Assembly (NCBI GenBank): GCA_963714745.1
Contig: CAVQPK010000002.1
Span: 2,239,531-2,303,530, forward strand
Direction of reading: 5' to 3'
From: an uncultured Acidobacteriota bacterium
GTDB lineage: Bacteria > Acidobacteriota > Thermoanaerobaculia > Thermoanaerobaculales > Sulfomarinibacteraceae
DNA length: 64,000 bases
A program made the position numbers and the translations under genes. Shown one piece after another: positions 6,144 to 52,600 of the stretch; positions within the stretch are counted from its first letter, which is position 1; each line of letters opens with the position of its first letter. Below the pieces are notes generated by a model. The model searched no databases. It had not been told where the DNA came from and worked only from the letters and a program-made list of their open reading frames with translations.

Positions 6144-9100
6144 TCACGTCAGACGATAGGGCAGTGCCGATGTCGTGACCTCGTGCTCACCGAGGGAGAC
6201 GGTGCCTTGATAGCCGTCGATCGAGATCACCTCGCCGGGCGCCAGCGTGCGGTCACCGATGCGCGCCGAGCGCTCGCTCTCGGAGACGTCGAGACCCGAG
6301 CAGTTCACCACGCAGCAGATGCCGAGCCGTTTGGCGGTGACCGCGGCGTGGGAGGTGAAGCCGCCGCGGGCGGTGAGCAGCCCGTCGACGGCCACCACCA
6401 GCTGGATGTCCTCCGGAACGGTGTCGGGCCGCAGCAGGATCACCTTTTCGCCCGGGTGGGCGCCGCGCAGCGCGAGCACGTCGTCGCGGGTGAAGGCGAC
6501 CCGGCCCACCATCGCTCCGCCGGCGACGCCGATGCCGGTTCCCAGCAGGTGGTCTCGCATGGTGGCGGGGCGCGCGAAGACCTGGACCTCGTGCTGCCGC
6601 ACGAGGCGCATCGGGCGCACCTGGAGGAGGTGGAGGCCGGCGGCATCCGGCGACTCGAAGGTGAACTCGATCTCCTGGTGCTCGTAACCGTGCTCGTTCA
6701 CCAGCAGCGACGCGATCTGGAGCAGCCGGTCGAAGACGTCGGGGAACGCCAGCTCGAGCGACATGTCGAGGTGGGGCGAGTACTCCTGGCGCTGTTTCTC
6801 GCTGACCGGGTACGGCCGCACCAGGCCACCGACCACGTCCTCGCCCTGCGATCGCAGCGTGAAGTCGCCGAACAGCCCGATGCCGGTGGTGGAGGTGCGC
6901 GGGTTGCGGGTGAAGGTGACGCCGGACCCCGACTCGTCGCCGAGGTTGCCGAACTTCATCTCCTGGACGATGACCGCGGTGCCCCAGTCGTCGGAGGTGC
7001 CCACCTGAGTGCGGAAAAGCCTGGCGGGCTCCGACTGCCACGATGCCGTCACCAGCCGGATGGCTTGCGCGAGCTGCTCGTCCGGCTGGTCGTGGAGCTC
7101 GATCTGGTGCTCCTCGCCGATCTTCCGGTAGGCGAGCGTCATCTCGCGCATCTGCTCGGCGGTGAACGCGGTCTTGCGTCCCACCCCGTGTCGGTCCTTG
7201 AACCGCTGCATCACATCGTCGAAGACGTCGCGCGGCACGCCCTGGGCCATCGCCACGTTCTGCAGGTACCGGCGGTAGCAGTCCCAGGCCCCCCATGCCG
7301 GGTGGCCGGCGCGGATCATGCCTTCGACGACCTTCGGGTCGAGCCCGACGTTGAGGATGGTGAGCATCATGCCCGGCATCGAGAAGGCCGAGCCCGATCG
7401 AACCGAGAGCACGAGGGGGTGGTCGGGATCGCCGAGGTGGCGTCCGGTGGCGAGCTCGACCCGCCGCACCGCGTCGATCAACCGCTCCCGGGTGTCGGCG
7501 GCGACATCCTGGTCCCCGAGCGCCTCCTCGAGGTGGTACAGCTCGGTCGAGATCACGAATCCCGGGGGAACCGGCAGACCGATTTCGGCCAGGCGCTTGA
7601 GGGAGAAACCCTTGTAGCCGAGGCTGAGCTGGTCCTCGTGCGGCTCGACCGGGTCGTGGAGGTGGCTCACGAGCCGGGACGGGGTGTAACCGAGCACCGC
7701 GCCGCAGGCCCGCTGCGAGAGGTTGGCGGTCATCCGCCGCAGGGTGCGCAGGATGCGGCGCAGGAAGACGTCCATCTCCTGGATCGCGTAGGTCGACGCG
7801 ATCAGCGCCCGGAACAGCTCCTCGCTGACGCGGTCGGCCGCCGGACCGCCGCGGGCGCCGTCGCGGGCGGCGAGCTGGCCCGCCATGCGCCGCAGGTTCG
7901 GGTTGTGAAGCGAGAGGTAGTTGGTCTCGACAACGCCGTTGAGCGCTTCGGACATGAAGTCGAAGACGTTGAGGTACTGCTCGGCCGAGAGGTTGCCGAG
8001 GGCGAGGGCGCGGCCGAGCAGGTCGAGCTTGGTGGACAGGTGGTGCACCCTGAGGCCCGCGATCCGGAGCCCCGCCAGCATCTGCTCGAGGATGGCGTGG
8101 GCGTCGCGGATCGACTGCCGGGTCATGTAGCGGTAGTTGAACTCGGCGACCAAGGCCTCGAGATGGGGTCTGACCAGCTTCATGGTGCGGATCATCAGCC
8201 CCATGGCGTCGAACTTCGGCTCGCGGTAGGTGCCGTACATCGACGGGATTCCGGCCGCGATGTGGCGCTTGTGGAAGATGTTCTCCTCGGCCTCGGTGAC
8301 CGCGGTGTCGACGATGGTCTGCTTGAGCTCGGCGAGCACCCGGTTTCCGGCGCGCACGATCTCGAGGTGGTCGTCGCCCAGGCATGCGGCGACGAAGTGC
8401 GATCGGACCTCCACCGAGACCAGCGGCGAGCCGTCGAGCATGGTCAGCAGCTGATCGGGGGAGTGGGTGTACTTCGCCTCGAGCAGTCGAGCGAGCCGGA
8501 CCAGGAGCGCGGCCCGCTCGCGGTCGATCTCGCCCACGCCGGCGATCGCCGCGATGAGACGCTCGAGCTCCTGCTGGTCGACAGAGTCCAGCGACTCCTC
8601 CGTGATCCCGGCCTGGCGCTCGAGTGCGACGGCGATGCGGTTCATGTCGCGAAACCACTCGACGTCGGGGTCGAGCCGGGCCAGGATGGTGGGCGGCAGG
8701 TAGCCGGAGAGGGGCAGCGAGTCCCCGGTCCGCCACCAGGACCAGACCGCGCGCGCGAAGCCGACCAGGCGGTTGTTGGACTCGGCGTGGGCCTGTTTGC
8801 GCAGGTAGTGGATGACCGGGTCCTGCCGCTGGCGGAGCTGGTCGATCCGGGTCGACACGTCGCGCAGCTCGCCCTCCGAGCCGACCTCGTTGAAGAAGAC
8901 CGGGAAGAACCCGACCAGCTGCATGATCAGGTTGAAGGCGTGAGCGATGTCGGCGTTGAGCAACGCCGAGATGTCGCGCTGGAAGAGGTCGGTGTCCGAC
9001 ACGAACACGCCGTGCAGGTGGAGGTTGATCACCAGCGCCGACAGCAGCTGCTCGTACTGGATCGGGTCGCTCTCGATGATCGCCAGCCAGGCCCGCACGC

Positions 9101-13292: not shown

Positions 13293-14051
13293 TCACGGCG
13301 ATGGTGGTGCACCCGCCGGGCCCGGGTCCGGCCGGTCCTGGTCCCCGGGAGTCGAAGTGCGCGACCGTTCCGCCTGCCAGCGGGCGCGCCTCTCCTCGAT
13401 CACCTCGGCAGCGGCCTCGACGTCGTCGACGCAGGTTGGCAGCGCCGCGTCCCCGGCGCCTGCATACGCCGGGTCGGTGTCGACCATGTGGCGGTTCGCC
13501 CAGGCCACCAGGTCGGCCCACATCGGACCGACCAGCACCAGCGGCACGTCCACCAGGTGGTGGACCTGGAGCAGCTGCCACACCATCACCAGCTCGAGGG
13601 TGGTGCCGATGCCGCCGGGAACCACCACGTAGGCGTCGGACATCCGGGCGAAGTGGTGCAGTCGCGAGAAGAAGTTCCGGTGGGTGTAGAGCTGCTCCAC
13701 GAAAGGGTTGGCGTGCTGCTCGAAGGGCAGGTCGATCCGGATTCCGACCGACGCGGTGCGGTCGTCGGGATCACCGAGCTGGGCGCCCTCGTTGGCGGCC
13801 TGCATCAGCCCGGGTCCGCCTCCGGTGATGAGGTCGCAGCCGGCGGCCGCCAACCGCTGGGAGAGCCGGCGCACGTCGGCGTAGAGCGGCGAGTCCGGCC
13901 GGACGCGTGACGAGCCGAAGAGGGTGACCCGGAACCGGTCCGCAACCGGCCGCACCTGGGAGAGCTGATTGGCCACCTCCCACAGGGCGAGCAGCGCGCG
14001 GTCGACGATCGCGACCGTGCGTTCGTTCTCCACCGCTGACGGGTGACCCAT
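13293..14051 (-). CDS. LOG family / TIGR00730 Rossmann-fold nucleotide-binding protein
   Basis: Met14 of ORF 13293..14090, with GAGGAGG upstream. Motifs: 'ITGGGPGLM', 'VVPGGIGTTLE'. Confidence 0.85.
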   Translation of the reverse strand: MGHPSAVENERTVAIVDRALLALWEVANQLSQVRPVADRFRVTLFGSSRVRPDSPLYADVRRLSQRLAAAGCDLITGGGPGLMQAANEGAQLGDPDDRTASVGIRIDLPFEQHANPFVEQLYTHRNFFSRLHHFARMSDAYVVVPGGIGTTLELVMVWQLLQVHHLVDVPLVLVGPMWADLVAWANRHMVDTDPAYAGAGDAALPTCVDDVEAAAEVIEERRARWQAERSRTSTPGDQDRPDPGPAGAPPSP

Positions 14052-14392
14052 GACGACCTCCTCACCGAGTCCGACGAAGGTACCATGCACCGTCCGGCCG
14101 ACCGCCCGGTCACCGCGGCCCCGCCGCGACGGCGGCGCGGGCGTGTCCGGAGGTGTCGAGCCGGAGGTGCGGCAGCCCTACGGCAAGCTCCTCGGAGGGG
14201 CAGCGCGCTGCGATCCCTCCGCGGCTCGACCAGCCGTTTGGTCGCGCAACCGGGTCCCGGTGCCGGCTCTTGCCGGCGTCTGGGGAGGCCGTCGTGCTGA
14301 GTCTCGGGGCCGCGTTCGAGCTGGAGCCCGCCGGGGAGCTGGTCCTAAGACCATTCATTGAAACATCTTCCGACCGTCAACAGTAAGAGGGC

Positions 14393-14421
14393 TTGACGAT
14401 GGGCGGAGCTGGTGCTAAATT
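14393..14421 (+). promoter_or_regulatory. Sigma70-like promoter of the blaI/blaR1-like operon
   Basis: TTGACG (14393-14398), a 17-nt spacer, TAAATT (14416-14421), in a locally AT-richer stretch 48 nt upstream of ATG 14469. Confidence 0.5.
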
Positions 14422-14423
14422 TC

Positions 14424-14448
14424 CAGCATGATGCTGAAAAATCAGCAT
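14424..14448 (+). promoter_or_regulatory. Candidate operator: palindrome CAGCAT-G-ATGCTG plus a third CAGCAT half-site
   Basis: 'CAGCATGATGCTG' (14424-14436) sits immediately after the -10. 'CAGCAT' recurs at 14443-14448. This position is typical for a BlaI/MecI/CopY-type autorepressor site. Confidence 0.4.
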
Positions 14449-14468
14449 CGATCCCGCGTGGAGGCGTC

Positions 14469-14858
14469 ATGGAACCGAAACCCCTCACCCACCTCAGCCG
14501 CCGGGAGAGCCAGATCATGGAGATCGTCTACGAGCTCGGCCGGGCGACCGTGGCCGAGATCCTCGAGCGGTTGCCCGAACCTCCGAGCTACTCGGCGGTG
14601 CGCGCGATCCTGCGGGTGCTCGAGGAGAAGGGCCACCTCGAGCACGAGCAGGACGGTCCGCGCTACGCCTTCGTGCCGACGGTCCCGCGGGAGGCGGCCC
14701 GCGCCTCGGCGCTTCGCCGCCTGGTCCGGACCTTCTTCGACGGATCGGCGGAGAGGGCCGCGGCTGCGCTCATCGATCTCGAGGCCGACGAGCTCGACGA
14801 GCAGGCTCTGCAGCGGTTGCGCGACAGGATCGAGCGCGCCCACCGGGAGGGCGAGTGA
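14469..14858 (+). CDS. BlaI/MecI/CopY family transcriptional repressor
   Basis: Met20 of ORF 14412..14858, with GGAGG upstream. Motifs: 'LSRRESQIMEIVYELGRATVAEILERL', 'YSAVRAILRVLEEKGHL'. Confidence 0.85.
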   Translation: MEPKPLTHLSRRESQIMEIVYELGRATVAEILERLPEPPSYSAVRAILRVLEEKGHLEHEQDGPRYAFVPTVPREAARASALRRLVRTFFDGSAERAAAALIDLEADELDEQALQRLRDRIERAHREGE

Positions 14859-14859
14859 G

Positions 14860-16902
14860 ATGGACGCCGTGGTGGTGAGCTGGCTGGTCGACGCGTCGTT
14901 GAGGGCGGCGCTGGTTGTGGCCGTGGCCGGTGCGGTCGGGGCGCTCATGCGCAGGGCGCCGGCGCGGCTCCGAGGGGCGGTCTGGGCGGCCGCGCTGATC
15001 GGGGCGACGCTGGTTCCGGTCGCCTCGGCCCTGCTCCCTCCGCTCGCAGTACCGCTGCCCGCGCTCCGCCTCAGGGTGGAGCCGGTCGCCTCGTCCGCTG
15101 CCGCAGCGACGACGCCGGTCGCCCCCGCTGTCGGCCGCCAGACCGGGCCGACGTCGACCAGAGCGAACCCGCCGTCGCCGGTCACACGACCGGCTGCGCG
15201 ACGCCCGTGGTGGTCCGGCGCGGTGCTCCTGCTGTGGGCCGGAATCGGGCTCGGTGTGCTCGGCGCGCAGCTGGTCGCCGCGCTCCGGCTGCGACGGATC
15301 GTACGGCGGGCCGCACCGGTCGAAGACGGCAGGTGGCGCGGACTCCTGGAGGCAGAGGCGAGGAGGGTCGGGCTGGTCCGCGTCCCTCGTCTCGTGGTGA
15401 CCTCAGAGCTGGCGACGCCGGCCACCGCGGGTCTGCTCCGCCCGGTGGTGCTGATCCCCGACTCGGCCCGCTGGTGGGTGCAGGAACGCCGCGCGGTGGT
15501 TCTCAGGCACGAGCTGGTCCACGTCGCGCGCTTCGACTGGGCGGTGCGCGCGTTCACCCGGGCGGCGTGCGCCGTCTACTGGTTCAACCCCCTGGTGTGG
15601 TGGGCCTGGCGTCGACTGGCGGTCGACCAGGAGCTCGCCTGCGACCAGGAGGTCCTCGCGCTCGGCGCCCGACCGAGCACCTATGCCGCTCACCTGCTGG
15701 CCGTGGCGCGCATCGCGCTCGCCCTGCCGGCACCATCCGGCGCCGCCCTCGGCATGGCGCGGCGCTCGCACCTGGAGGGACGCATCATGGCGATTCTCGA
15801 CCCTGCCCGTGTCCGTCGTGTCGGGCTCGACACGTTGCTGCCGGCAGTTCTTCTCACTCTGGCCTGTGCCGCCGGCCTGGCCGCGGTCCGCCCGGCCTCC
15901 GCGGATCCTCCGGCGAGCACGACGGTGCGGGCGAGCTCCGAGGTCCGCCAGATCGTGGAGCAGATCCGGGAGCTCGAGGGCCAGATCGAGCAGCGAGCGG
16001 AGCAGATGGAGGGTGTCGAAGAGGCGATGCGACCCCGTCTGGACGAGATCGAGGCCCATGCGGCGCGGGTCGGTGAGCTCCATGCGGCCGAGATCGAGGC
16101 CCGGCTCGAGCCCTTCCACGAGCGGGTGCGCGAGCTCGAGCTCGAGATGGAGCCGCTCCACGCGGCGATGGCCGAGCTGGCCGCCTCGATCGAGCCGGTT
16201 CACCTCGAGATCGACACCTCGACGGTCCGCGAGCAGCTCGCCCGGCTGGAGACCGAGCTCGAGGGGATGGGTACGACGGTCTCGCTGGACGAGCTGATGG
16301 ATCGCATCCACGGGTTGATGGAGCCGCTCCGGGCGAGCCTGGAGGCTGCGCACCTCGCCGCCGAGCCGCGGATCGCCGAGCTCGAGACGCTGCACGAACG
16401 GCTCGAGCCCTACCACGACCGGATCGAGGAGATCCACCGCGAGATGGAGCCGACGCTCGAGCAGATCGAGAGAATGCACCTCGAGATGGAGCCCCATCTG
16501 GCTCAGCTCGACGGCCTGCACGAGGCGCTCGAACCGTTCCACGAGCAGATGGAGGCGTTCCAGCGGGAGATCGAGCCGCTGACCGACGAGATCGACGCCC
16601 TCGCCGAGCGGTTGCGCCTCGAGCTCAGGGACGAGGTGAGCTCGGTTCTGAAGCGCGAGCTGGCGGCCGTGGTCGAACCCGGTGCGCCGTTCGCCGAGGC
16701 GGCCGAGCGGCTGCTCGAGCGGGCCAACCTCCACCTCGAGGATGACCTGATCGAGCTGCGCGTGTCGCGGCGGGAGGCCCGGCGGGTGCTGCGCGACCTG
16801 ATGACTCCGGTACGGCGGGGTGGGGTCTCCGACGCCGATCTCGACGCCGCGATCGACGCCGCTGCCGCCTCGATCCGGTCCTTCGAGCTGGTGCTCGACT
16901 GA
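14860..16902 (+). CDS. BlaR1/MecR1-like M56 peptidase membrane protein with a C-terminal His/Glu-rich 14-residue repeat domain
   Basis: ATG 14860 is 1 nt after the blaI-like stop (Met145 of ORF 14428..16902). It has TM helices and the HExxH motif 'VLRHELVHVARFDW'. The C-terminal region is about ten 'EPxH...' repeats. Confidence 0.85.
   Translation: MDAVVVSWLVDASLRAALVVAVAGAVGALMRRAPARLRGAVWAAALIGATLVPVASALLPPLAVPLPALRLRVEPVASSAAAATTPVAPAVGRQTGPTSTRANPPSPVTRPAARRPWWSGAVLLLWAGIGLGVLGAQLVAALRLRRIVRRAAPVEDGRWRGLLEAEARRVGLVRVPRLVVTSELATPATAGLLRPVVLIPDSARWWVQERRAVVLRHELVHVARFDWAVRAFTRAACAVYWFNPLVWWAWRRLAVDQELACDQEVLALGARPSTYAAHLLAVARIALALPAPSGAALGMARRSHLEGRIMAILDPARVRRVGLDTLLPAVLLTLACAAGLAAVRPASADPPASTTVRASSEVRQIVEQIRELEGQIEQRAEQMEGVEEAMRPRLDEIEAHAARVGELHAAEIEARLEPFHERVRELELEMEPLHAAMAELAASIEPVHLEIDTSTVREQLARLETELEGMGTTVSLDELMDRIHGLMEPLRASLEAAHLAAEPRIAELETLHERLEPYHDRIEEIHREMEPTLEQIERMHLEMEPHLAQLDGLHEALEPFHEQMEAFQREIEPLTDEIDALAERLRLELRDEVSSVLKRELAAVVEPGAPFAEAAERLLERANLHLEDDLIELRVSRREARRVLRDLMTPVRRGGVSDADLDAAIDAAAASIRSFELVLD
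16020..16640 (+). repeat. Intragenic 42-nt (14-codon) periodic repeat within the M56 protein
   Basis: Pro-to-Pro spacing is exactly 14 residues in successive units: 'EPLHAAMAELAASI', 'EPYHDRIEEIHREM', 'EPTLEQIERMHLEM', 'EPHLAQLDGLHEAL', 'EPFHEQMEAFQREI'. The DNA motif GAGATGGAGCC recurs. Confidence 0.8.
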
Positions 16903-16910
16903 GGGCCGGC

Positions 16911-17996
16911 TCAGCCGACCGGCATCTCGTCGCGACGGGTCGAAACCGCTCCGGACGCGGCGGCAGAGGATGAGCCGAGGCGGTCGACGACCGCCTCGGC
17001 CTCGGCGACGATCCGACGGATCACCTCGGCCACCGACGGCGTGTCGCCGATCAGACCCGTGCACTGACCGAGCGGCAGCACCCCGGAACGGGTGTCACCG
17101 GTGACGCATCCGTCACGGAAGGCGTCGAATCCGATCGCCATGCGCGCCATCTGCACCGAGCGGCCGGGGCCCGAGGTCAGGATCCCGAGCGCCAGCTTCA
17201 GCCACGGCAGGCCGAGCATGCCCGCGATGCGGTGCGACCGCAGCAGGGCCGAGATCGGGTTGAGGCGGCGGGACATGATCGCCCGCGAGCCCGGCGCATC
17301 GAGGTAGCGGCCGGGCAGCCCGTCGATCCGGTTGGTGTAGACGGTGTCGAACGAGCCGTGGTCCCGGCTTGCCTGCTTCGCCCCCTCGTGCACCGGGCTT
17401 TCGACCGTGTTCATGAACCGTGTGCCCATCGCCACCCCGTCGGCGCCGAGGGCGAGCGCCGCGGCGAGCCCGCGCCCGTCGGCGAAGCCGCCCGCGGCGA
17501 TCACCGGCAGCCCGACCGCGTCGACCAGGGCGGGCACCAGGACGAGCGAGGTGACCGAGCCGCCGTGGCCCGCCGCCTCGTGCCCGGTCACGATCAGCGC
17601 GTCGGCGCCGTCCCGCTGGGCTGCGAGCGCGTGCTTGAGGGTGGTGACGGTGGCGATCACTCTGCCGCCGTAGGCGTGGGCGGCCTCGGTAATCCAGTCC
17701 CCCTTGCCGAGCGAGTAGTTGATGACCGGGACCTGCTCCTCGAGCAGCACCTCGGCGTTCGCTTTGTTGCCGGGGAAGTAGAGGGTGACGTTGGCGGCGA
17801 ACGGGCGATCGGTCAGCTCGCGGGTCCGTCGGACGGCGACCCGGGTGGCCGCCGCGTCGAGCACGCCGGTCGCCAGGATGCCGAGCCCGCCCGCGTTGGC
17901 GACCGCCGCCACCAGCTCGGGGGTCGAGATCCAGCTCATTCCCGACAGCACCAGGGGGTGCTCGACTGAGAAGCTCTCGGTCAACCGGGTCCGCAT
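16911..17996 (-). CDS. Nitronate monooxygenase / NMO (FabK-like) family flavoprotein
   Basis: Met91 of ORF 16911..18266, with GAGGAGGG upstream. Motifs: 'GMSWISTPELVAAVANAGGLGIL', 'GHEAAGH', 'IAAGGFADGRGLAAALALGADGVAMGTRF'. Confidence 0.85.
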   Translation of the reverse strand: MRTRLTESFSVEHPLVLSGMSWISTPELVAAVANAGGLGILATGVLDAAATRVAVRRTRELTDRPFAANVTLYFPGNKANAEVLLEEQVPVINYSLGKGDWITEAAHAYGGRVIATVTTLKHALAAQRDGADALIVTGHEAAGHGGSVTSLVLVPALVDAVGLPVIAAGGFADGRGLAAALALGADGVAMGTRFMNTVESPVHEGAKQASRDHGSFDTVYTNRIDGLPGRYLDAPGSRAIMSRRLNPISALLRSHRIAGMLGLPWLKLALGILTSGPGRSVQMARMAIGFDAFRDGCVTGDTRSGVLPLGQCTGLIGDTPSVAEVIRRIVAEAEAVVDRLGSSSAAASGAVSTRRDEMPVG

Positions 17997-18105
17997 GGTG
18001 CTCCACCCTCCTCTCGGGTCCGAGCGGCAGCTCGCCGCCCGGACTTGAGAGTAGCACTCTGGAGAAAGCACATCCATCGAGTGGTGCGGAGCAGTGAGGT
18101 GAAGG

Positions 18106-18651
18106 TCAGGAGGACGGGCGCACGGCCTCCACGAGCTCGTCCGGGTCGTCGGCCAGCGCCTCGGCCAGCACGCGTTCCATGTCCCCGTCGAGGCGCACGA
18201 CCTCGAGCGAAGAGCCGTCGAGCTCGAGCACCAGCAGCCGGTCGAGCCGTCCGTCCGGCCTCGCATGCTGCATCACCCAGGTTGTCTGCGAGCCGTCGTT
18301 GATCTCGACCACCGACGCCCAGCCGGCGGCGGAGAGACTGGTCGCGAGCTGGTTGAAGGCCCCGAGGGTGCTCTCCCCCCGGCGGAGGACCCGGTAGGTC
18401 GCGACCTCGACACGGCGAACTCCGGCGAGGATCCGAGCGGCCTCCTCCTCGTCCGTCATGCGCACCACCGCCCGCGCAAGGGCGAGGGTCACCCGGCCGA
18501 GCACGAGGTGCTCCTCGCGCTCCAGCCGCCACCCGGGCGTGCCCGGGTCGACGAGGGAGACCACGTCGCCGGCCCGCGACGCCGAGGAGGCGCAGGCCGC
18601 AGCCACGACCACCGTGGCGGCGACGGCGGCCCGACCGAGGCGGGCCCTCAC
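18106..18651 (-). CDS. DUF4252-like lipoprotein (second copy)
   Basis: GTG 18651 overlaps the upstream stop (GTGA). Lipobox-like 'VVVAAACASS'. It is a paralog-like partner of the upstream gene. The family assignment is from memory. Confidence 0.65.
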   Translation of the reverse strand: MRARLGRAAVAATVVVAAACASSASRAGDVVSLVDPGTPGWRLEREEHLVLGRVTLALARAVVRMTDEEEAARILAGVRRVEVATYRVLRRGESTLGAFNQLATSLSAAGWASVVEINDGSQTTWVMQHARPDGRLDRLLVLELDGSSLEVVRLDGDMERVLAEALADDPDELVEAVRPSS

Positions 18652-19229
18652 CGGCTGCCCCCGGTCGGCAGCTGGTCGAGGTCGAGGTCCTCGAGCGCCG
18701 GGAGCTCGTCGAGGTCGGCGAGCAGACGGCCGAGCTCTCGCGGGTCGATCGCACCGACCAGGTTCACCAGCGCCAGCTCGTCGTCGAGGGCGAGCACGGT
18801 GATGCCGTCGATCCGCTGGTCGTCGCCCCTGACGTAGACGCTGACCAGCTCGTCTCCGTTGCGCACCAGGACCATGCGTTGCCAACCCTCGCCCTCGAGC
18901 CGGGTCGCCGCCTCCTCGAGGCGTCGCCTCGTGTCGGCCAGACCGGCGTTCCCTTCGATCGCTCCGACCTGGACGCGGATCCGCTCGAGGCGAGAGACCA
19001 GCGCGGCAAAGGCCCGCTCGTCCGCGTCACCCTCGAGCACGCCGCTGACCATCCGCAGCATCGGGCCGGTCAGGTCCACGTCGACCTCGATCGCCGACGG
19101 AGAGAGCAGGCCCAGCGTCTCGATCGGAAAGTAGCCCGGATGCTGCGTGACCGGTTGCGCCGCGGTGGCGCCACCGGCCGCGATCGCGAGCGCCGTGAAC
19201 AGGATCGCAACAGCGCGTCGGTTCATCAT
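18648..19229 (-). CDS. DUF4252-like secreted protein (first copy)
   Basis: ATG 19229 overlaps the anti-sigma stop (ATGA), with GGGAGG upstream. Signal peptide 'MMNRRAVAILFTALAIAAGGATAAQP'. Confidence 0.65.
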   Translation of the reverse strand: MMNRRAVAILFTALAIAAGGATAAQPVTQHPGYFPIETLGLLSPSAIEVDVDLTGPMLRMVSGVLEGDADERAFAALVSRLERIRVQVGAIEGNAGLADTRRRLEEAATRLEGEGWQRMVLVRNGDELVSVYVRGDDQRIDGITVLALDDELALVNLVGAIDPRELGRLLADLDELPALEDLDLDQLPTGGSR

Positions 19230-19819
19230 CTGCCTCCCTGCAGCGCCGAGACCTCGGCGCCGGCGGTCGTGGAAGGGCGTGCCGGTGCGGTCGTGGTCGG
19301 TTCCATGACCGCGACGACAGGCCGAATCAGGTGGTCGACGAGAGCGCGGCGGCCCGCGTCGACGCCCCCACGGCGGGTCGCGCGGGCGAGCACGGCGAGC
19401 GCGTAGCGTGCCTCGCCCGATGCCTGGACGAGCGCCGCCGCGTCGGGAACACGGATGGCGGGAGAGCGGGCCTGATGCCACCACAGGGTGGCGCCGGCCG
19501 CGGCGACGACCAGGGCGGCTGCGGCAGCCAGACGCGCCGGCCAGGTGGTGAGGACGGCTCGCCGCGGGCGTCGCACCGGTCGGCGGGAAACCTCACGACG
19601 TACTGCCGCGAGCACCCGATCGGGCGCATCCCACTGGGGCAGGCTGCGGAGGCCGTCGCGCACGGCCAGGGCGCGCTCCCGCTCCCGCTCGCAGGCGGCG
19701 CAGACGGCGACGTGGGCCGTGACCGCCCGTGCGCTCTCGGGCGCGAGCTCGCCGTCGATGAAGGCCTCCAGTTGCTCGCGGATCGCGGTGCACGGGAGGA
19801 GGTCACACGGCGACGACAT
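19226..19819 (-). CDS. Anti-sigma factor (zf-HC2 type, single TM)
   Basis: Met11 of ORF 19226..19849. 'C...H...CAAC' in 'AVTAHVAVCAACERERE'. TM 'LAAAAALVVAAAGATLWW'. It overlaps the sigma gene end by 17 nt. Confidence 0.75.
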   Translation of the reverse strand: MSSPCDLLPCTAIREQLEAFIDGELAPESARAVTAHVAVCAACERERERALAVRDGLRSLPQWDAPDRVLAAVRREVSRRPVRRPRRAVLTTWPARLAAAAALVVAAAGATLWWHQARSPAIRVPDAAALVQASGEARYALAVLARATRRGGVDAGRRALVDHLIRPVVAVMEPTTTAPARPSTTAGAEVSALQGGR

Positions 19820-20336
19820 GGTGTGCCGCCTCCTTTCCGAGTCGATCACGGAGCCGGCGCCGCGCCCGGTGGAGCGCGACCCGGATCGTGCTCAGGGGCA
19901 GCTCGAGGACATCGCCGATCTCCCGGTAGGTGAGCCCCTGGACCTCGCGGAGAATCACGATGCTCCGCATCGGCTCGTCGAGAGCGTGGATGGCGGTCCG
20001 CAGCTGGCGGCCGAGCTCAGCCGAAGCGGCGCGCTGCTCGGGGTCGGCGTGTGGACTCGGAAGCTGGGAGACGACCCCCTCGAGGTCGTCCGGTTCGAGG
20101 CGCCGAAGGCCCGCCCGGCGCCGGCGGAGGAGGTCGTAGCATGCGTTTCGGGTGACCCTCAACAGCCACGGCCCGAGCTGCATCGACTGCAGCATCTCGG
20201 GGCGGCGCCAGAGCCGGATCAGCACCTCCTGGGTCACGTCCTCTGCCTCCTCGCGGCTCCCCAGCAGGTAGCAGGCCAGGGTGAAGACCCGCCGCTGGTG
20301 CCCTCGAATCGCGGTCTCGAAGAGCGTGAGCTGCAT
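19803..20336 (-). CDS. ECF (sigma-70 family group IV) RNA polymerase sigma factor
   Basis: Full listed ORF. Region 2 'AEDVTQEVLIRLWRR...WLLRVTRNACYDLLRRR'; region 4 'REVQGLTYREIGDVLELPLSTIRVALHRARRRLR'. Confidence 0.9.
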   Translation of the reverse strand: MQLTLFETAIRGHQRRVFTLACYLLGSREEAEDVTQEVLIRLWRRPEMLQSMQLGPWLLRVTRNACYDLLRRRRAGLRRLEPDDLEGVVSQLPSPHADPEQRAASAELGRQLRTAIHALDEPMRSIVILREVQGLTYREIGDVLELPLSTIRVALHRARRRLRDRLGKEAAHHVVAV

Positions 20337-34334: not shown

Positions 34335-36950
34335 TCAGCCCGGGGGAGCCTGAGTCGGGGGCGAGATGCCGCGGGCGCGGCACATCGTGCGCAGGTCGGG
34401 GTCGCTCCAGCCTACCGCCAGCAGCTGCTGGGCCGTCGGCCGAGCGTCGTCGACACGACCCAGCAGCAGGAGCGCCTTGACGCGATACTCCTGGGCGCGG
34501 AGCAGGGCGAAGCTCGCCTCGAGGGGTTGGGTGATCCTCACGGCCTCTGACCAGAGACGGCGTGCCTCCTCCGGTTTTCCCCCCCGGGTCGCCAGCTCGC
34601 CGAGCCCGACCAGGACCGATCCGAGCACGCCGATCGACGCACGATCCCGCGGGTTGGCCTCGACACGTGCGGCGTGGACCCGCCGCGCATGCTCGTACAT
34701 CGCCCCGGCCTCCTCGAGCTTGCCCCGTTTCATCAGCACGCGGGCCAGCCGAGCCTCGGCGAAGGCCACGTCGGTGTCGTCGGGTCCGCGCAGGTCGAGC
34801 AGCACCTCGAGCGCCTGCCGGTCGAGGGCCTCGGCCCGTTCCAGCCGACCGGTGTCGTGGGCCAGCAGGCCGAGCTCCAACAGGCAGCCGGCGGTCTCGG
34901 CATGCCGGTCGCCCACCGCCTCCCGGAAGGTCTCGCACGCCTGACCCAGGAGCGCCTCCGCCTGGTCGAAGTCACCCCTCGAGTGCTTGATGGTCGCGAG
35001 CCGCTGCATCGTCCATGCAGCCTGGCGGTGGCGGGGCCCGAGGGTCCGCCGCACGATCTCCAGCGACCTCTGCAGCAGCTCCTCGGCGCGGTCGAACTCG
35101 CCTCGGAAGGTCAGGCTCATCGCCAGCTGGCGCAGGAGCGACGCGACCGCCGGGTGGTCCGGGGACAGGACCTTCTCCTGGATCTCGAGCGCCCGCTCGA
35201 GGTGGCGGCTGGCCACCTCGTCGTCACCCTGCGAGGTCGCGATCGAGGCCAGCTCACGCAGCAGGACGGCCACCAGTGGGTGGTCGGACCCCGAGCCCTT
35301 CTCGATCACCGCCAATGCCCGGCTCACCGCCGCCTGGGCCCCCTCGAAGTCGCCCTGAACCTTGAGGGTGACGCCGAGGCTGCCGAGCGGGTCCGCGAGG
35401 TCGGGATGGTCGGGCCCCAGCCCGGCCTCGATCGACGCCACCACCCGCCGGAACAGGTCCGCAGCGCGTTCGTGCTCGCTGCGGGAGAATGCCACCGAAG
35501 CCAACACGTTGAGCGCCCTCGCGGTCTCCGGGGCGCCCACGCCGTGCCGCCGCTCGCGGATCTCGAGCGCTGCCCGCGCCAGCGCCTCGCTCCGGTCGTA
35601 GTGACCGAGGGAGTACTCCAGCTCCGCCAGGTGCTCCTGGCTCGCGGCCACCTCTGCGTGCCCGGGCCCGTGCTCCCGAGTGCGGAGCTCGAGGGCACGC
35701 TCCAGCAGCCTGGCCGCGGGTTCATACAGCCCGAGCTCGCGGTAGACCTCGCCCATGGTGTCCATCAGCCGGGCCTGGGTGAGGGGTTCGGTCACCAGCT
35801 CCCGCTCGATTCGGTCGGCCGCGGCGTCCAGGATCTCGCGCGCCGTGACGGTGTTCCCGCGCGACTCGCTCGGGTCGGACACAGAGAAGACGCCGACCAG
35901 GAAATCGGACACCTCGCGGGCGACGGCCGCCTCGCGGGCGGCCTCGGCCTCGGCGGCACGGGCGATGGCGAGGGACCTCCGTGCGTGGGCGAGGCCGAGC
36001 AGCGAGGACGTGGCAGCGATGACCAGGCCGCCGGCGACGGCGGCGACGGCGATGCGACGCAGCCTGCGTCGTGGGCGCTCCCGAATCCAACGCAGGCGCT
36101 CGGCCGTCTCGACCGCGCTCGGCCGGTCGGTGGGCGCGAACGACTTCAGCCGCGAGATCAGCCCGGACAGCTGGGAGTCGACGCCCTCCACCGGCAGTGT
36201 TTCGCCCCACATCGCCTTCTGCTTCAGCTCGGGGAAGGTCAGGCCCTCCGGGTAGGGTCGCTTCCCGGTGAAGAGCTCCTGGAGCACGAGCCCGAACGAG
36301 TACATGTCGCTGGCCGCGGTGAGGGGCTCCCCGCGCGCCTGCTCCGGGCTCATCGAGCGGGGAGTTCCGACGACGTCGCCGATCTCGGTCAGGGTCAGAT
36401 CGCGGCCGTCGGAGGCTGCCTCGGCGACGGGCGGCGGCGAGTCGTTTCGGACCGGCTGCCCGCCGGCGTCCTCGGATTCGGCCGCGGCCCGAGCGAGGCC
36501 GAAGTCGAGCACCTTCACCAACCCGTCGTCATCGACCACCACGTGCTCGGGCTTGAGGTCACGGTGGATCACGCTGACGGTGTGTGCGGCGACCAGCGCG
36601 CGGGCGACCTGCTCGGCGATGGCGAGCTTGGCCTGGAAGCTCCGGCCCTGGGCCGCGACCTGGGCCAGGTCGGTGCCCTCGACCAGCTCCATGACGATGT
36701 AGTCGGCCTCGCCCTCCTCGAGGAACTCATAGATGCGGCAGATGTTGGGGTGCTCGAGCTGGGACAGGATCCGCGCCTCGCGGGCGAATCGCTCCCTCGC
36801 CCGGTGGTCCATTCTCCGCTCGCGGCGGACCGCCTTGACCGCGACCCGGCGGCCGAGACGCTCGTCCAGGCCGACGTAGACCTCGCCCATCCCGCCCTCG
36901 CCGAGGGACTCGACGATGCGGATGTTGCGCAGCATGGTCCCGATCAGCAC
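34335..36950 (-). CDS. Ser/Thr protein kinase with TM segment and C-terminal TPR array
   Basis: Full listed ORF (871 aa). Motifs: 'GEGGMGEVYVG', 'VAVKAV', 'HRDLKPEHVV', 'DFGLAR'. These are followed by repeated 'LG..H...A.....LA..Y...G.Y..AE.L' TPR-like units. The start is GTG 36950 or ATG 36935. Confidence 0.9.
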   Translation of the reverse strand: MLIGTMLRNIRIVESLGEGGMGEVYVGLDERLGRRVAVKAVRRERRMDHRARERFAREARILSQLEHPNICRIYEFLEEGEADYIVMELVEGTDLAQVAAQGRSFQAKLAIAEQVARALVAAHTVSVIHRDLKPEHVVVDDDGLVKVLDFGLARAAAESEDAGGQPVRNDSPPPVAEAASDGRDLTLTEIGDVVGTPRSMSPEQARGEPLTAASDMYSFGLVLQELFTGKRPYPEGLTFPELKQKAMWGETLPVEGVDSQLSGLISRLKSFAPTDRPSAVETAERLRWIRERPRRRLRRIAVAAVAGGLVIAATSSLLGLAHARRSLAIARAAEAEAAREAAVAREVSDFLVGVFSVSDPSESRGNTVTAREILDAAADRIERELVTEPLTQARLMDTMGEVYRELGLYEPAARLLERALELRTREHGPGHAEVAASQEHLAELEYSLGHYDRSEALARAALEIRERRHGVGAPETARALNVLASVAFSRSEHERAADLFRRVVASIEAGLGPDHPDLADPLGSLGVTLKVQGDFEGAQAAVSRALAVIEKGSGSDHPLVAVLLRELASIATSQGDDEVASRHLERALEIQEKVLSPDHPAVASLLRQLAMSLTFRGEFDRAEELLQRSLEIVRRTLGPRHRQAAWTMQRLATIKHSRGDFDQAEALLGQACETFREAVGDRHAETAGCLLELGLLAHDTGRLERAEALDRQALEVLLDLRGPDDTDVAFAEARLARVLMKRGKLEEAGAMYEHARRVHAARVEANPRDRASIGVLGSVLVGLGELATRGGKPEEARRLWSEAVRITQPLEASFALLRAQEYRVKALLLLGRVDDARPTAQQLLAVGWSDPDLRTMCRARGISPPTQAPPG

Positions 36951-48863: not shown

Positions 48864-49686
48864 CCACAGAGGACGCAGAGAACCTCAGCGCGGGTCGTGC
48901 CCGCAACCCAAGTGACCGGTGAGCGAACGCGGCCGCTTCCGTTCACGGGGAGGCAAGAACCCGGGGTCGGGCAGCGGGCGACGGGCGGCCGGTCCGGGTG
49001 AGTCACGAGCCGCGAAGCGACTCAGTACGCCGTCGCCCGCCCCCGGCCGCCCGTCGCCTGGATGGGCGCGATGGTGGGTCCCCCGAATCCGAGGCAACTC
49101 CGGCACGGCCCCTCTCCCGGGCACGGGCCAGACCCCAGGGTGTGACGGTGATTGCGGTGCCGGAGGAGACCATTCGACTCCGCGGCCCTGGCGGGCCGCT
49201 CCGCTCAGGGTGACGGCTGGTGTGCGGCGCCTCGAACGCGGTCGTCCCCGGCACGCGAGCCGGTCTCTTCCCTCCCGTGTCTCCTGAGCGAGCGAGCCGG
49301 AGGCGAGCGGATGAACCCAGGGCAACACCACTGTCAGCAGCCGAGGGCGGCCTACGCGGAGGTGCAGGAGGAGCAGAGCGCTCTCACTCTGATGGCGGTA
49401 CGCGGCATCGAGATCCCGGAGGTGGTCGTCGACACTGTCGACCGCCTCGGCGGTCTCGTGTACGGGCTCCTCCGATTCGAGAGGCGTGGTTGAACGCCCC
49501 TCAAGTCAGCGGTTTCAGAGTGCTGCGCAGCCAGAACGTCGTCGAAGGAACGACGATTCTCGGTCAGGAGTCGAACACAGCATCCTCCCTCCAGAAGCTC
49601 GCGTTTCGGGGCTGGTGCTCAGGCACCAGCCCGAAAACGTCAATCTCGGGTGGGCGGGGGCTCTGTGCCTCTGTGCCTCTGTGGTG
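48864..49686. repeat. Repeat element of about 820 bp bounded by inverted (CACAGAGG)n arrays, carrying a degraded four-helix-bundle gene
   Basis: 'CCACAGAGGACGCAGAGAACC' (48864-48884) is inverted relative to 'CTCTGTGCCTCTGTGCCTCTGTGGTG' (49661-49686). The interior shares G-rich blocks ('GGGGTCGGGCAGCGGGCG') with 28.5 kb, 56.8 kb and 58.4 kb. Confidence 0.7.
49347..49493 (+). pseudogene. Truncated paralog of the four-helix-bundle gene (C-terminal about 48 codons)
   Basis: 'AAYAEVQEEQSALTLMAVRGIEIPEVVVDTVDRLGGLVYGLLRFERRG' compared with 27993-28382 'AAYAEVQEVQTALALLAARGVAIPSMVRDAADRLGGLVYGMLRSESRA'. That is 32 of 48 identical by eye. Upstream sequence has lost the frame. Confidence 0.6.
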
Positions 49687-52600
49687 AGTCTTCCTGGTCG
49701 CCCTGCTCGAGGCGGGCGGCTGGCCAGGCGGCGGTGGGGGCGTCCGGAGCGGCCTCGGGCGGGTCCGCGGGCAGCAGCACGGTGAAGGTGCTGCCCGCGC
49801 CCGGCGCCGACGTCACGACGACCCGACCCGCCATCAGCGCCACGTAACGCCTCACCAGCGCGAGGCCGAGTCCGCTGCCCCCGAACCGCCGTCCCGAGCC
49901 CGAGTCGAGCTGGCGGAACTCCTCGAAGATGCGCTCCTGGTCTTCCGCCGCGATCCCGATGCCCCGGTCCTCGACCGCGAGCTCGAGGGTGCGCCGGCCG
50001 AGCGAACCGGTGTCCGACACCGCTGTGCGAGCCAAGACCACGACCCGGGACCCCTCGGGAGAGAACTTGACCGCGTTGGACACCAGGTTGAACAGCACCT
50101 GTCGCACCTTGCCCGCGTCGAGACGGAAGTCCGGGAGCCCGGCCTCGACCTTCTGTACGAGCTCGATGCCGCGGGTCGCCGCCATGCCGTGGGCGATCCG
50201 ACACACGTCGTCGACCAGCGAGCCGACGGACACCTGCTCGATCTCGAGCACCATGCGGCCGGATTCGATCTTGGACAGGTCGAGGATGTCGTTGATCAGG
50301 GCGAGCAGGTGCTGGCCGCTGGAGAGGATGTTGGTGAGAAAACGCGGCACCCTCGGGTCATCGGCGCCGTCGAGCTTGCGCAGCAGAATCTCGGAGAAGC
50401 CGATGATCGCGTTCAGGGGTGTGCGCAGCTCGTGGCTCATGGCAGCGAGGAAGGCGCTCTTGGCGCGGCTCGCCTGCTCGGCGGCGCGCCCGGCGCGCTC
50501 GAGCTCGCGCACCGCGTGCGCCTTGTCGAGCGCGATGATCGCGTGCTGGCGGTAGCGTTCGAGGGCGCGGATCTCGGCGTCGCGCAGCCGCTCGAAGGGC
50601 ATTCCCAGGTCGAAGAGCAGGAACGCGACCACCCGGCCTTCGAGCTGGAGGTCGACCGCGAGCAGGGTCCGTCCGGGGGGCAGGTGGCGCACCCGGTCGG
50701 CGCCCGGCCTGTGCTCGAGGCCGCGCACCACCGAGATGCCCTCGCCGATCCGGTCCTCCGGGTCCGCGAATCGCGCCAGCGCCTCGTGGCGGGGAAACGA
50801 GAGGTCCTCCACCAGCCCGGGAGGCCAGCCGGTGGAGGCGGCGACGGCGAACCGCTCGCCGTCCTCGTCGGTGAGCAGGAGAACTCCGGTGCGGGCACGC
50901 CGCAGCAGCACCAACCCTTGATCGAGCAGGGTGGTGGCCACCTTGTCGAAGACCACCTCGCGGTTGACCGTGGCCACGATGCGGTCGAGGGTCTCGAGCT
51001 CCGCGGCGTAGGTGCGCAGCTCGGTGGTGCGGGCGGCCACCACGCTCTCGAGCTTGCGGGTCCGTTGCCTGAGGCGGGCCGTTCGCCACCGGTTGGAGAT
51101 CTGCACGCCGAGCGCGAGCACCAGCACGGCCGCGGCGGCGGCCCACCAGCTCTGCCACCACACCGGCCGGACCGTGAAGGCGAAGCTCAGCGGCTCGGAC
51201 CACGAGTCGGAGCCGGTCGTCGCGGCGACCTCGAAGGTGTACCCGGTCGGAACGAAGAGCGCCGGCAGGTTGGTGTAGCGAAGGCGGGTGTCGGCCGTGG
51301 GCGGCGACCAGCGATCGGAGAACCCCCGCAGCCGGGTGCGGTAGCGGACCCCGCTCTCGTCGATGAAGGTCAGGGCGCTCCACTGGAGGTTGACCTCGTT
51401 GGCGGCCGAGGGTTCGTCCTCGATCGTCGCCGTGCGCAGCACGAGCCGCGGCGACCCTCCCCGACCGTGGTCCAGCGCAGGGCGGTACCGGGTCAGCCCC
51501 TTCGGAGTTCCCAGGTACACCGTGCCGTCCTCCGCCACCGCCAGCGACGAGTCGGCGCCCCATGCCTCGTTGTCGATCAGGCCGTCGGCCTTCGAGACCG
51601 TTCGCAGCACGCGGCCCGCGGTGATGTCGACCTCGGCCAACCCCGAGTTCTGGGTCACCCACAGGGAACCGGGGGACGACGGGTCGAGTGCCATCCCCAT
51701 CACGTGGTTTCCCCCGAGGCCGGTCTCGCGGTCGAGCCGTGTGGTGATGCCGGCGGGATCGCCCGCCACGGCGAACAGGCCCGCGGCCGAACCGATCCAC
51801 ATCCGGTCTCCCGCCCACAGCAGGTTGTGGACGGCGTTGGTCGGCGCGCCGCGGTTCCGGTCCCACCACGGCTCGAGCAGCGGCACGGCGACCGTCCGGT
51901 CGGAGTCCGCATCCCCGACCCCGCGCCGGAGCATCTCCAGGGTGACCGGCCCGGGGCTGCGCAGGACGCCGCTGTCCTTGGAGACCACCCACAGGCGGCC
52001 GTCGGGGTCGAGTGAGGTGGACACCGCCCCGGAGGCCGGGACTCCGGCCGCTGTGTGCAACACGAACCACGAGCCTCCACCCCAGACCGTGACGCCGGCG
52101 GTTCCCGAGAGCCACACCGCCGGCTCGAGCCGGCTGCGGTCCGCCCGCGCGGCGACCGGAAGCACCCGGGATCCGTAGAGCGTGCCGGTCGGGTAGGTGC
52201 CGAGCCGGTAGGGTCGTCCCAGAATCAGCAGCCGCCGTTGCTGGGTCCTGCCGAGAGGCCCGGGCAGAGGCGGGCCGGGAGTGAGCACGCCCAGTCCTTC
52301 GAGGGTGCCGATCCAGATCCGCCCCGAGGAGTCCCGGGTGAGGGTGTAGATCGAGCCGGACGGCAGCCCGTCCGCGACCCCGACCACCGCTCGGCGACCA
52401 TCCGCGGCCAGCGCCGCGAGACCGCCGCCGGTGCCGGCCCAGATCACCCCGTCGGGATCGTCCTGTGCCGGCGGCAGGACGGCGAAGACCGAGGGGTCGG
52501 GCAGTGACGGCGCCACGCCGGCGCGACTGCGGCCGGTAAAATGTTCGAACGCGGCATAGTTCGGGCGGAGCCGGGAGCAGCCGGAGTTGGTCGCGAACCA

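Follow-up and report, generated by a model that had tools for sequence, protein, structure and literature searches.

A BlaI/BlaR1-type repressor-protease pair of uncultured Acidobacteriota with a proline-punctuated His/Met-Glu repeat tail as a candidate periplasmic metal sensor

BlaI/BlaR-type (BlaIR) pairs, comprising a BlaI-type repressor and an M56 membrane protease, are widespread in bacteria; approximately 6% sense beta-lactams, and the signal of almost all others is not established (PMC13492132). In a set of roughly 15,000 M56 proteins, ~6% have a transpeptidase domain, the commonest architecture displays an unannotated tail, and 96% of the M56 homologs sit no more than five genes from a BlaI-like gene (PMC13492132). 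A metal-dependent precedent is PetP, an M48/M56 protease that degrades the BlaI/CopY-type repressor PetR only with copper present (bioRxiv 10.1101/2020.07.31.226407). Outside this group, Met and His, not Cys, typically serve as the ligands of periplasmic copper sites, and the Ni/Co sensor CnrX employs His, Glu and Met residues of a helical bundle (PMC6851896), whereas the SilE peptide SP2 binds Ag+ via His80, Met83, His87 and Met90, all on one helical face (PMC10080550). The DNA stretch analysed here, referred to as the window, comprises 64,000 nucleotides of contig CAVQPK010000002.1 from an uncultured Acidobacteriota bacterium, and encodes a BlaI-type repressor followed by an M56 protease with a long C-terminal tail of 14-residue repeats that start with Glu-Pro (EP repeats). 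The locus is highly likely to be a self-contained, probably autoregulated BlaI/BlaR1-type proteolytic switch that acts as a signalling chassis; what is new is the sensor module mounted on this BlaIR chassis, which to date comes from uncultured bacteria only.

In the window the repressor gene comes first, followed by the probably co-transcribed protease gene, and the G+C content of the region is 72%. A protein identical to the protease of the window is already on record (P0095), on a 2.55-Mb NCBI/ENA contig. The core of the pair comprises the following elements, with residue numbers referring to the protease:

14460-14464: GGAGG ribosome-binding site of the blaI-type gene.
14469..14858, forward strand: BlaI/MecI/CopY-family winged-helix repressor, 129 amino acids, no Cys, PF03965.
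14860..16902, forward strand: M56 membrane zinc protease with a predicted periplasmic repeat tail, 680 amino acids, starting 1 nt past the blaI stop codon.
14899..15795, forward strand: M56 peptidase domain (residues 14-312), with transmembrane helices TM1-TM3 and the cytoplasmic catalytic domain, Pfam PF05569.
15508-15522, forward strand: HELVH zinc-binding motif of the HExxH type (residues 217-221).
15820..15891, forward strand: fourth transmembrane helix, TM4 (residues 321-344), exiting to the periplasm, predicted from hydropathy and from an AlphaFold2 helix at 323-342.

The protease part was described as conventional for the BlaR1 type in the initial annotation, and the analysis supports this assignment. 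The Pfam model PF05569 (Peptidase_M56) matches residues 14-312 (E=6.7e-37); the motif H217-E-L-V-H221 does not vary across family alignments of 18 and 25 sequences, and neither do Q257, E258 and D262 of the downstream ExxxD, a pattern named as a conserved motif of M56 proteins (bioRxiv 10.64898/2026.08.03.742534). The AlphaFold2 model of the full protein, built with 25 sequences, displays a mean predicted local distance difference test (pLDDT) of 82.3 and a predicted template-modelling score (pTM) of 0.47. The top Foldseek matches in the PDB are the cryo-EM structures of S. aureus BlaR1 (8EXT/8EXS/8EXQ/8EXP/8EXR), the best being 8EXR_A with a root-mean-square deviation of 3.4 over 175 columns and a TM-score of 0.58 normalised to the target. 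At the sequence level the NCBIfam blaR1_generic model aligns with residues 120-268 only, at 84.7 bits versus a cut-off of 400, and the MecR1 model reaches 14 bits versus a cut-off of 1200, in the protease part only.

The hydropathy profile discloses four hydrophobic segments (residues 1-30, 41-69, 116-144 and 321-344), in agreement with the AlphaFold2 helices, and the catalytic domain falls between TM3 and TM4; the loops on the side of the catalytic domain are positively charged, following the positive-inside rule, and the sequence RVRR precedes TM4, with an acidic tail after it. Because of the four hydrophobic segments, the positive-inside rule and the fold match to S. aureus BlaR1, the tail of ~335 amino acids that follows TM4 should be extracytoplasmic, i.e., periplasmic, as the initial annotation had proposed. 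That annotation had also read the tail as devoid of penicillin-binding motifs, which holds: neither a transpeptidase/penicillin-binding protein (PBP) family (PF00905) nor an SxxK-type sensor was found in the protein with Pfam and NCBIfam. The protein fits the M56/BlaR1 protease family and lacks the transpeptidase domain, the canonical feature of a beta-lactam sensor. The earlier wording that the sensor domain is 'replaced' stands for the absence of the transpeptidase and not for its singularity, only the ~6% of M56 proteins mentioned above having one; loss of the penicillin-binding domain is ordinary, and the distinctive part is this EP-repeat tail.

The tail comprises a repeat region and a small terminal domain:

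15922..16662, forward strand: heptad/14-residue repeat region (residues 355-601), delineated by predicted long helices, periodicity and Foldseek.
16108..16233, forward strand: first EP block, three units (residues 417-458), N-terminal arm, His poorly conserved.
16309-16320, forward strand: H484-M487 pair, just upstream of the second EP block.
16321..16614, forward strand: second EP block, seven units (residues 488-585), His/Met arm, holding three of the five HxxM pairs.
16663..16899, forward strand: C-terminal alpha/beta domain (residues ~602-680), comprising a helix, a beta-hairpin, two helices and a strand.

The dipeptide EP occurs at residues 417, 431 and 445 of the first block and at 488, 502, 516, 530, 544, 558 and 572 of the second, yielding ten units in which the Pro-to-Pro interval is exactly 14 six consecutive times. 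The Pro spacing of 14, the His-His spacing in multiples of 7, the number of EP dipeptides and the register of His to Pro were matched by none of 20,000 shuffles of a 245-residue region. The approximately ten units with six exact spacings counted in the initial annotation are borne out. Taking Glu as position 1, His occupies position 4 in five of the ten units and position 11 likewise in five of ten, the same i, i+7 pair formerly numbered 3 and 10 by counting from zero; hydrophobic residues fill positions 3, 7, 10 and 14. The hydrophobic autocorrelation peaks at lags 7, 14, 21 and 28, with values of 0.46 at lag 7, 0.33 at 14 and 0.23 at 21, and the basic unit is therefore the heptad, with a Pro in every second heptad that generates a 14-residue super-period. 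No 42-bp DNA repeat was found by TRF in the repeat region; an origin by recent DNA tandem duplication or slippage is rejected on this ground, and the units are therefore old and diverged.

AlphaFold2 places helices at residues 360-406, 409-449, 454-469, 476-556 and 558-601 of the repeat region, with pLDDT values of about 80-95, and the Foldseek matches other than BlaR1 are antiparallel coiled-coil arms, e.g., SMC and SH3BP5. The window tail holds five pairs in which Met stands three residues after His (HxxM), at 434-437 in the first block and at 484-487, 526-529, 540-543 and 561-564. Across 25 family members, the His residues of the C-terminal arm (484, 512, 519, 526, 540, 554 and 561) are kept in 52-76% and the Met residues three positions later (487, 529, 543 and 564) in 64-76%, whereas the His residues of the N-terminal arm of the window protein are mostly not conserved. 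In the window protein itself, each arm carries a strongly negative net charge (-18 and -21). A cytoplasmic or disordered tail with no conserved His had been named beforehand as the outcome that would speak against a sensory ladder; the tail is instead predicted to be periplasmic and helical, and its His residues are conserved to the extent given above. The description of a 'His/Glu ladder' survives as regards His, and is better rendered as a His/Met arm facing a Glu-rich arm. The C-terminal domain, the split into an acidic and a His/Met arm and the Met three residues past His were overlooked at that stage.

The survey of M56 proteins for this tail, suggested with the initial annotation, uncovered a family. 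Word-indexed searches, with the tail alone and with a profile of the terminal domain, returned one protein each; the family was revealed by a genome scan and by running phmmer exhaustively over 1.84 billion representatives with the tail as query. The phmmer search gave 92 matches at E<=1e-3 and 60 at E<=1e-10, the strong ones being nearly all proteins of 600-900 amino acids with an N-terminal HExxH, or fragments of such proteins. Approximately 60 cluster representatives, mostly from metagenome-assembled genomes (MAGs) of Acidobacteriota, combine the M56 part, the EP repeats and the conserved C-terminal domain, and the genome scan provided ~20 full-length relatives with 37-44% identity, most of them in MAGs labelled Thermoanaerobaculia, Holophagae, Sulfomarinibacteraceae or Acidobacteriota. 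The next proteins in the profile search are M56 proteins 35-45% identical in the protease part with TPR, HEAT, WD40, PDZ/S41 or CarboxypepD_reg tails; these other-tail proteins (P0111-P0204) come from records labelled Thermoanaerobaculia, Vicinamibacterales, Gemmatimonadales and others.

From 472 units bounded by Pro residues 14 apart in 57 family proteins, the consensus EPFHEEMERIHEEM was derived, giving HxxMxxxHxxM. By position it reads E1 P2 F3 H4 E5 R/E6 M/L7 E8 A9 L/I10 H/E11 x12 E13 M/L14, and it comprises two unit types, including (i) a His/Met type with H4, M7, H11 and M14, which yields the HxxMxxxHxxM pattern, and (ii) an acidic Glu/Leu type with E4, L7, E11 and L14. Met is found at position 7 in 38% and at position 14 in 54% of the units, three residues past the His positions, and is scarce elsewhere in the core (position 10, 4%; position 3, about 3%). 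Within a unit, His and Met tend to occur together, with z = 6.6-9.5 when stratified by protein, a statistic that ignores repeat and phylogenetic relatedness, and HxxM is far commoner than MxxH in the family tails, e.g., 16 versus 2 in P0009. The C-terminal half of the repeat region is richer in His in 54 of 56 proteins (569 versus 143 His), and acidic units precede His units in 45 of 50, with P0042 and P0059 reversed. The numbers of acidic and His units correlate (r = 0.51), whereas arm lengths compared by residue counts give r = 0.13; in the long family members the first arm bears a net charge of -30 to -50 and the second of about -2 to -25.

Three M56 proteins with extremely His-rich tails (P0016, P0030 and P0042; 48-70 His, up to 20 HxxM) display another C-terminal end, with no match to the hidden Markov model (HMM) of the terminal domain, and in P0042 the His/Met block lies ahead of the acidic block. 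Several copies of the family gene from long-read MAGs (L013, L017, L018, L019 and P0038) contain frameshifts within the repeats, after which the translation passes into an Arg/Ser/Thr-rich frame; these are probably assembly errors in repetitive GA-rich DNA, not pseudogenes.

The C-terminal alpha/beta domain, or cap domain, measures ~80-100 amino acids across the family and is located at the extreme C-terminus of 78 proteins according to a local HMM. Residues 580-680 modelled alone with 23 sequences by AlphaFold2 attain a pLDDT of 92 and a pTM of 0.82. The domain is the best-conserved part of the tail, the top phmmer stretches covering query residues ~165-335; its mean column identity is 48%, with no invariant column in the 23-sequence alignment. 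It has no match in Pfam, PDB sequences or Foldseek-PDB.

The expression of the pair appears to be governed by a compact control region upstream of blaI:

14393..14421, forward strand: sigma-70-type promoter, TTGACG, 17-nt spacer and extended -10 TG-n-TAAATT.
14413..14428: putative operator dyad 1, TGCTAAATTTCCAGCA, overlapping the -10 element.
14432..14447: putative operator dyad 2, TGCTGAAAAATCAGCA, 3 nt past dyad 1.

This promoter is the sole promoter-like site in 14000-17200, with 0.0 expected in shuffles, and a TTGACA-like -35 element stands at equal distance in the ortholog loci. The operators take the form of TGCT-N8-AGCA dyads, TGCTAAWTTYYTAGCA-like. In most ortholog loci, blaI is preceded by a near-identical dyad 1 (TGCTAAATTTCTAGCA or variants of it), and the orthologs carry dyad 2 as TGCTAAWTTCTTAGCA with the same spacing; even where the proteins are only ~38% identical, the order TTGACA, GGTGCTAAATTTCTAGCA, tga and TGCTAAWTTCTTAGCA is retained, with the layout almost unchanged. 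A metagenome scan recovered the dual operator from 55 contigs, in nearly all of which a blaI-like gene follows it directly; 15 of these blaI-like genes precede an M56 gene with an EP-repeat tail, and others precede M56 genes with different tails. Since the dual operator is conserved upstream of blaI, the blaI/M56 pair is very probably autoregulated, and since it also precedes M56 genes with differing tails, the repressor/operator chassis appears to be common to sensors with swapped tails (TPR, HEAT, WD40, PDZ and EP repeat).

The repressor itself matches the Penicillinase_R/BlaI model PF03965 over residues 9-122 (E=8.8e-26) and scores 37.4 bits with the NCBIfam CopY/TcrY model TIGR02698, versus a cut-off of 121.95. 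The metal site of CopY is a C-terminal CxCx4CxC motif; the repressor of the window, without a single Cys in its 129 amino acids, therefore does not have this site, and its identification as a CopY is ruled out by the absence of Cys and the score under the cut-off. The placement of the partner repressor in the BlaI/CopY family by the initial annotation is right as to PF03965 membership and does not extend to the copper site; judged from the sequence, its link to CopY is one of family resemblance only.

Other occurrences of the operator pattern were recorded. The window holds six TGCT-N8-AGCA palindromes against 0.3 expected in shuffles, the four outside the blaI promoter being at 937-952, 6691-6706, 17734-17749 and 50235-50250; no other AT-rich site of this form exists in the window. 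Because these four have GC-rich centres and three are inside genes, they are probably codon-driven and not operators; the site at 937 may be intergenic. On contig L136 (PJEL010009388.1; 1740-3433), the dual operator and a TTGACG -35 element lie ~90 nt upstream of a gene for a 523-amino acid PF00144 lipoprotein (E=6.4e-65), a beta-lactamase-family gene divergent from an ECF (extracytoplasmic function) sigma gene; it may belong to the regulon of a related BlaI, but cannot be tied to the EP-repeat tail family. On contigs L093 and L095 (1598-1632, reverse strand), the dual operator and a TTGACG -35 element are followed by a 56-amino acid open reading frame (ORF) with a lipoprotein-like signal peptide and no blaI, which might represent a gene disrupted by a frameshift or encode a small regulated lipoprotein, and which likewise cannot be tied to the EP-repeat tail family.

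Taken with the properties of SilE and PetP, these features allow a mechanism to be proposed. That periplasmic metal cations are the signal sensed by the coiled coil is the leading but tentative possibility, argued from sequence patterns and by analogy; its elaborated form, a polyvalent periplasmic metal sensor in which Cu(I)/Ag(I) or other cations zip a SilE-like HxxM arm onto a poly-Glu arm, with graded occupancy leading to protease activation and destruction of the BlaI-type repressor, is possible but doubtful. The BlaI-like repressor should bind the two tandem TGCT-N8-AGCA dyads overlapping its own -10 element. In the proposed scheme, the repeats would fold back as an antiparallel coiled-coil hairpin, the acidic Glu/Leu-type arm packing on the His/Met-type arm. 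In antiparallel coiled coils, e positions face e' positions; His, at heptad position e, would therefore be placed opposite Glu at e', and the hairpin would return the terminal domain to the membrane face of the protease. A parallel homodimer is unlikely because arms with a charge of -30 to -50 would face each other. Periplasmic cations would bind the HxxM sites (Cu(I)/Ag(I)-type) and/or the His-Glu pairs (Cu(II), Zn(II), Ni(II)), neutralising and zipping the hairpin; the change would pass via TM4 to activate the protease, and cleavage of the repressor would derepress the operon and a further regulon.

The HxxMxxxHxxM spacing of the family equals that of His80/Met83/His87/Met90 in SilE, and the resemblance can be illustrated by HEKMAEIHTRM of family member P0009 versus HQAMAEAHRRM of SilE, the SilE sequence used for this comparison being 100% identical to annotated silE genes of plasmids. 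Homology to SilE is rejected on the BLASTP and NCBIfam results given below, motif spacing being all that the two have in common.

In the surroundings of the pair, ORFs were clustered from 22 loci, and Pfam-annotated contexts were obtained for four members. The only conserved neighbour across the family loci is blaI; genes for metal handling, beta-lactamases or the envelope show no consistent linkage in the 22 clustered loci and the four annotated contexts. The upstream neighbours in the window comprise a LOG-like gene, a GDSL lipase and a response regulator; downstream follow a convergent nitronate monooxygenase, DUF4252 genes, an ECF sigma/anti-sigma pair and an ABC transporter. The closest relative (58% identity; contig L081) shares this gene order including the ECF cluster, whereas distant members do not. 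The window as a whole is rich in envelope and signal-transduction genes, and no tRNA or Rfam element was found in it. The neighbouring and distant features comprise:

16911-18266: convergent nitronate monooxygenase.
18106-18885, reverse strand: further overlapping ORF of the ECF cluster.
18648-19484, reverse strand: DUF4252 protein.
19226-19849, reverse strand: zf-HC2 anti-sigma factor.
19803-20336, reverse strand: ECF sigma factor.
34335-36950, reverse strand: 870-amino acid Ser/Thr kinase with TPR repeats.
49640-53593, reverse strand: 1316-amino acid histidine kinase with Reg_prop beta-propeller repeats.
58835-61585, reverse strand: M50 site-2-protease-like ORF.

Several observations weigh against a metal-sensing hairpin. 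With a pTM of only 0.47, the pairing of the two arms is inferred and not seen. The number of HxxM motifs per family tail ranges from 0 to 20; P0013, P0040, P0048, P0049 and P0055 keep the terminal domain with no or one HxxM, some members bearing the cap domain have almost no His, and the window protein, with only five, is a weak example. No metal-resistance or homeostasis gene occurs near the pair, among the larger ORFs of the window or at the related loci. As regards SilE, BLASTP gives E=1.7 with the window tail and 0.016 with P0009, and the model NF047789 (AgBindSilE), which gives 288.8 bits with SilE itself, does not appear in the listed NCBIfam matches for the window repeat arm, P0009 and P0017; moreover, AlphaFold2 predicts confident helices without metal, unlike disordered apo-SilE. 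Met at heptad position a and His at e could be purely structural, and the His-Met covariation statistics carry no correction for relatedness among repeats or in phylogeny. In short, the family-wide HxxM pattern and the copper-activated PetP/PetR pair speak for metal binding, and the want of nearby metal genes and the His-poor members speak against it.

Other explanations distribute the functional roles differently along the tail. It is somewhat unlikely, yet a serious contender, that the repeats form a passive coiled-coil stalk and that sensing or docking falls instead to the C-terminal alpha/beta domain, which would bind a ligand or an envelope component, or re-dock on the periplasmic loops of the protease, much as in BlaR1 the sensor domain rests on the extracellular loop. 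The conservation of this domain, the highest in the tail at 48% mean column identity, its position at the end of 78 proteins and its confident fold (pLDDT 92) are consistent with such a role, as are the wide variation of repeat number and His content, expected of a spacer, and the protein-interaction tails (TPR, HEAT, WD40, PDZ) of related M56 proteins. On the other hand, no match links the domain to a known ligand-binding fold or family, not one of its columns is invariant among 23 sequences, a stalk leaves the position-specific His-Met coupling and the two-arm charge pattern unexplained, and P0016, P0030 and P0042 have very His-rich repeats without the terminal domain. A tail that responds to pH, or more generally to ionic or envelope stress, through protonation of His facing the Glu-rich arm, which would shift the stability of the hairpin and hence protease activity, is quite unlikely. 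Many His residues at heptad position e do lie beside an acidic partner arm, His is often swapped for Gln and not for another metal ligand, metal genes are missing nearby, and ECF sigma, anti-sigma and DUF4252 envelope-type genes adjoin the pair in the window and in L081; however, protonation does not account for Met three residues after His, in the window protein neither arm departs from a strongly negative net charge (-18, -21), and the ECF cluster is syntenic only in the closest relative.

The variable repeat number, a motif array that resembles the SilE 'molecular sponge' and weak sequence matches to structural proteins (apolipoprotein A-I, E=0.0055; SMC coiled coils) would also suit a tail that receives no signal at all, being a membrane-anchored metal or cation buffer or a structural or oligomerisation element, with the protease constitutive or acting on other substrates; this is improbable, given that signalling is indicated by the strict association with a BlaI-type repressor and by the conservation of the autoregulatory operator, and that all characterised BlaI/M56 pairs are signal-dependent switches. 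Highly improbable is a response to beta-lactams or cell-wall damage sensed indirectly: the dual operator of L136 precedes a PF00144 beta-lactamase-family lipoprotein, and a PF00144 gene lies ~6 kb from family member P0110, but the tail has neither a transpeptidase domain nor an SxxK-type sensor, L136 differs in its GC content of 0.52 and its operator is common to M56 proteins with other tails, so that it cannot be tied to this tail family, and no beta-lactamase gene stands beside the pair in the window or in most loci.

Returning to the metal-sensing hairpin, the sequence of the EP-repeat tail leads to the prediction that a periodic His/Met-Glu ladder binds metals or protons. If metals are indeed the signal, the pair would constitute the second metal-responsive BlaIR system after the cyanobacterial PetRP, with an identifiable sensor module, a natural metal-zipped coiled coil, and a portable promoter/repressor/protease chassis with a well-defined and highly conserved operator; the metal zipper would be a route of metal sensing apart from the two-component, MerR/CueR, CopY and ECF systems. 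The tails swapped on one chassis are useful for understanding sensor evolution. If the tail is only a stalk, the locus would be one more orphan BlaIR variant of uncultured Acidobacteriota.

Compared with the BlaR1/MecR1 and BlaI/MecI systems of S. aureus and B. licheniformis, the pair of the window preserves the M56 fold, HExxH, ExxxD and four transmembrane helices, with the catalytic domain on the cytoplasmic side and the C-terminal module on the other; as in those systems, a winged-helix repressor is encoded next to the protease and operator dyads overlap the promoter. It differs in (i) a predicted ~240-residue proline-punctuated coiled coil followed by a small domain, in place of a transpeptidase/PBP sensor, (ii) the repressor-then-protease order, (iii) the TGCT-N8-AGCA operator, and (iv) the lack of a linked beta-lactamase gene. 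The atypical BlaIR systems, including PetRP from Synechocystis (copper), CenIR from C. difficile, PvmSR from P. aeruginosa and the mycobacterial BlaIR, likewise combine an M56-type protease and a BlaI-type repressor without a beta-lactam domain, and none of them has the EP repeat or the terminal domain. PetP, PvmS and the mycobacterial BlaR display little or no periplasmic C-terminal domain, compared with the 335-amino acid tail here, and the tail of CenR is short and predicted to be disordered, unlike the one described here. The proposed ligands of PetP are two Met residues in the TM2-TM3 loop, whereas the corresponding loop (residues 67-114) contains neither Met nor His; this loop and the 335-amino acid tail place the protein outside the PetP type.

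Beyond the BlaIR systems, SilE/PcoE (Ag(I)/Cu(I)) share with the tail a periplasmic location, as predicted here, and a repeated His-x2-Met-x3-His-x2-Met on one helical face. SilE is small, soluble and disordered until metal-bound, whereas the tail is membrane-anchored, predicted to be helical without metal and punctuated by Pro every 14 residues, has an acidic partner arm and forms part of a protease. CnrX of the CnrYXH system from C. metallidurans is also a membrane-anchored periplasmic helical sensor, in which His/Glu/Met ligands relay the metal signal across the membrane to the release of a transcription factor; unlike the tail, it has a single defined site in a four-helix bundle and signals to an anti-sigma factor. 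The exchangeable apolipoproteins (ApoA-I/A-IV/E, PF01442) resemble the tail in their proline-punctuated, Glu/Leu/Arg-rich amphipathic helical repeats; apolipoprotein A-I gives the best, though weak, match among PDB sequences (E=0.0055), and some family members carry a precomputed PF01442 assignment. Membership is rejected on the score (22.6 bits versus a cut-off of 90) and on the period of 7/14 instead of 11/22, and the likeness is one of composition and periodicity, not of ancestry. The 3-4 hydrophobic spacing, the period of 7 and the Foldseek matches to SMC and SH3BP5 are those of a heptad coiled coil.

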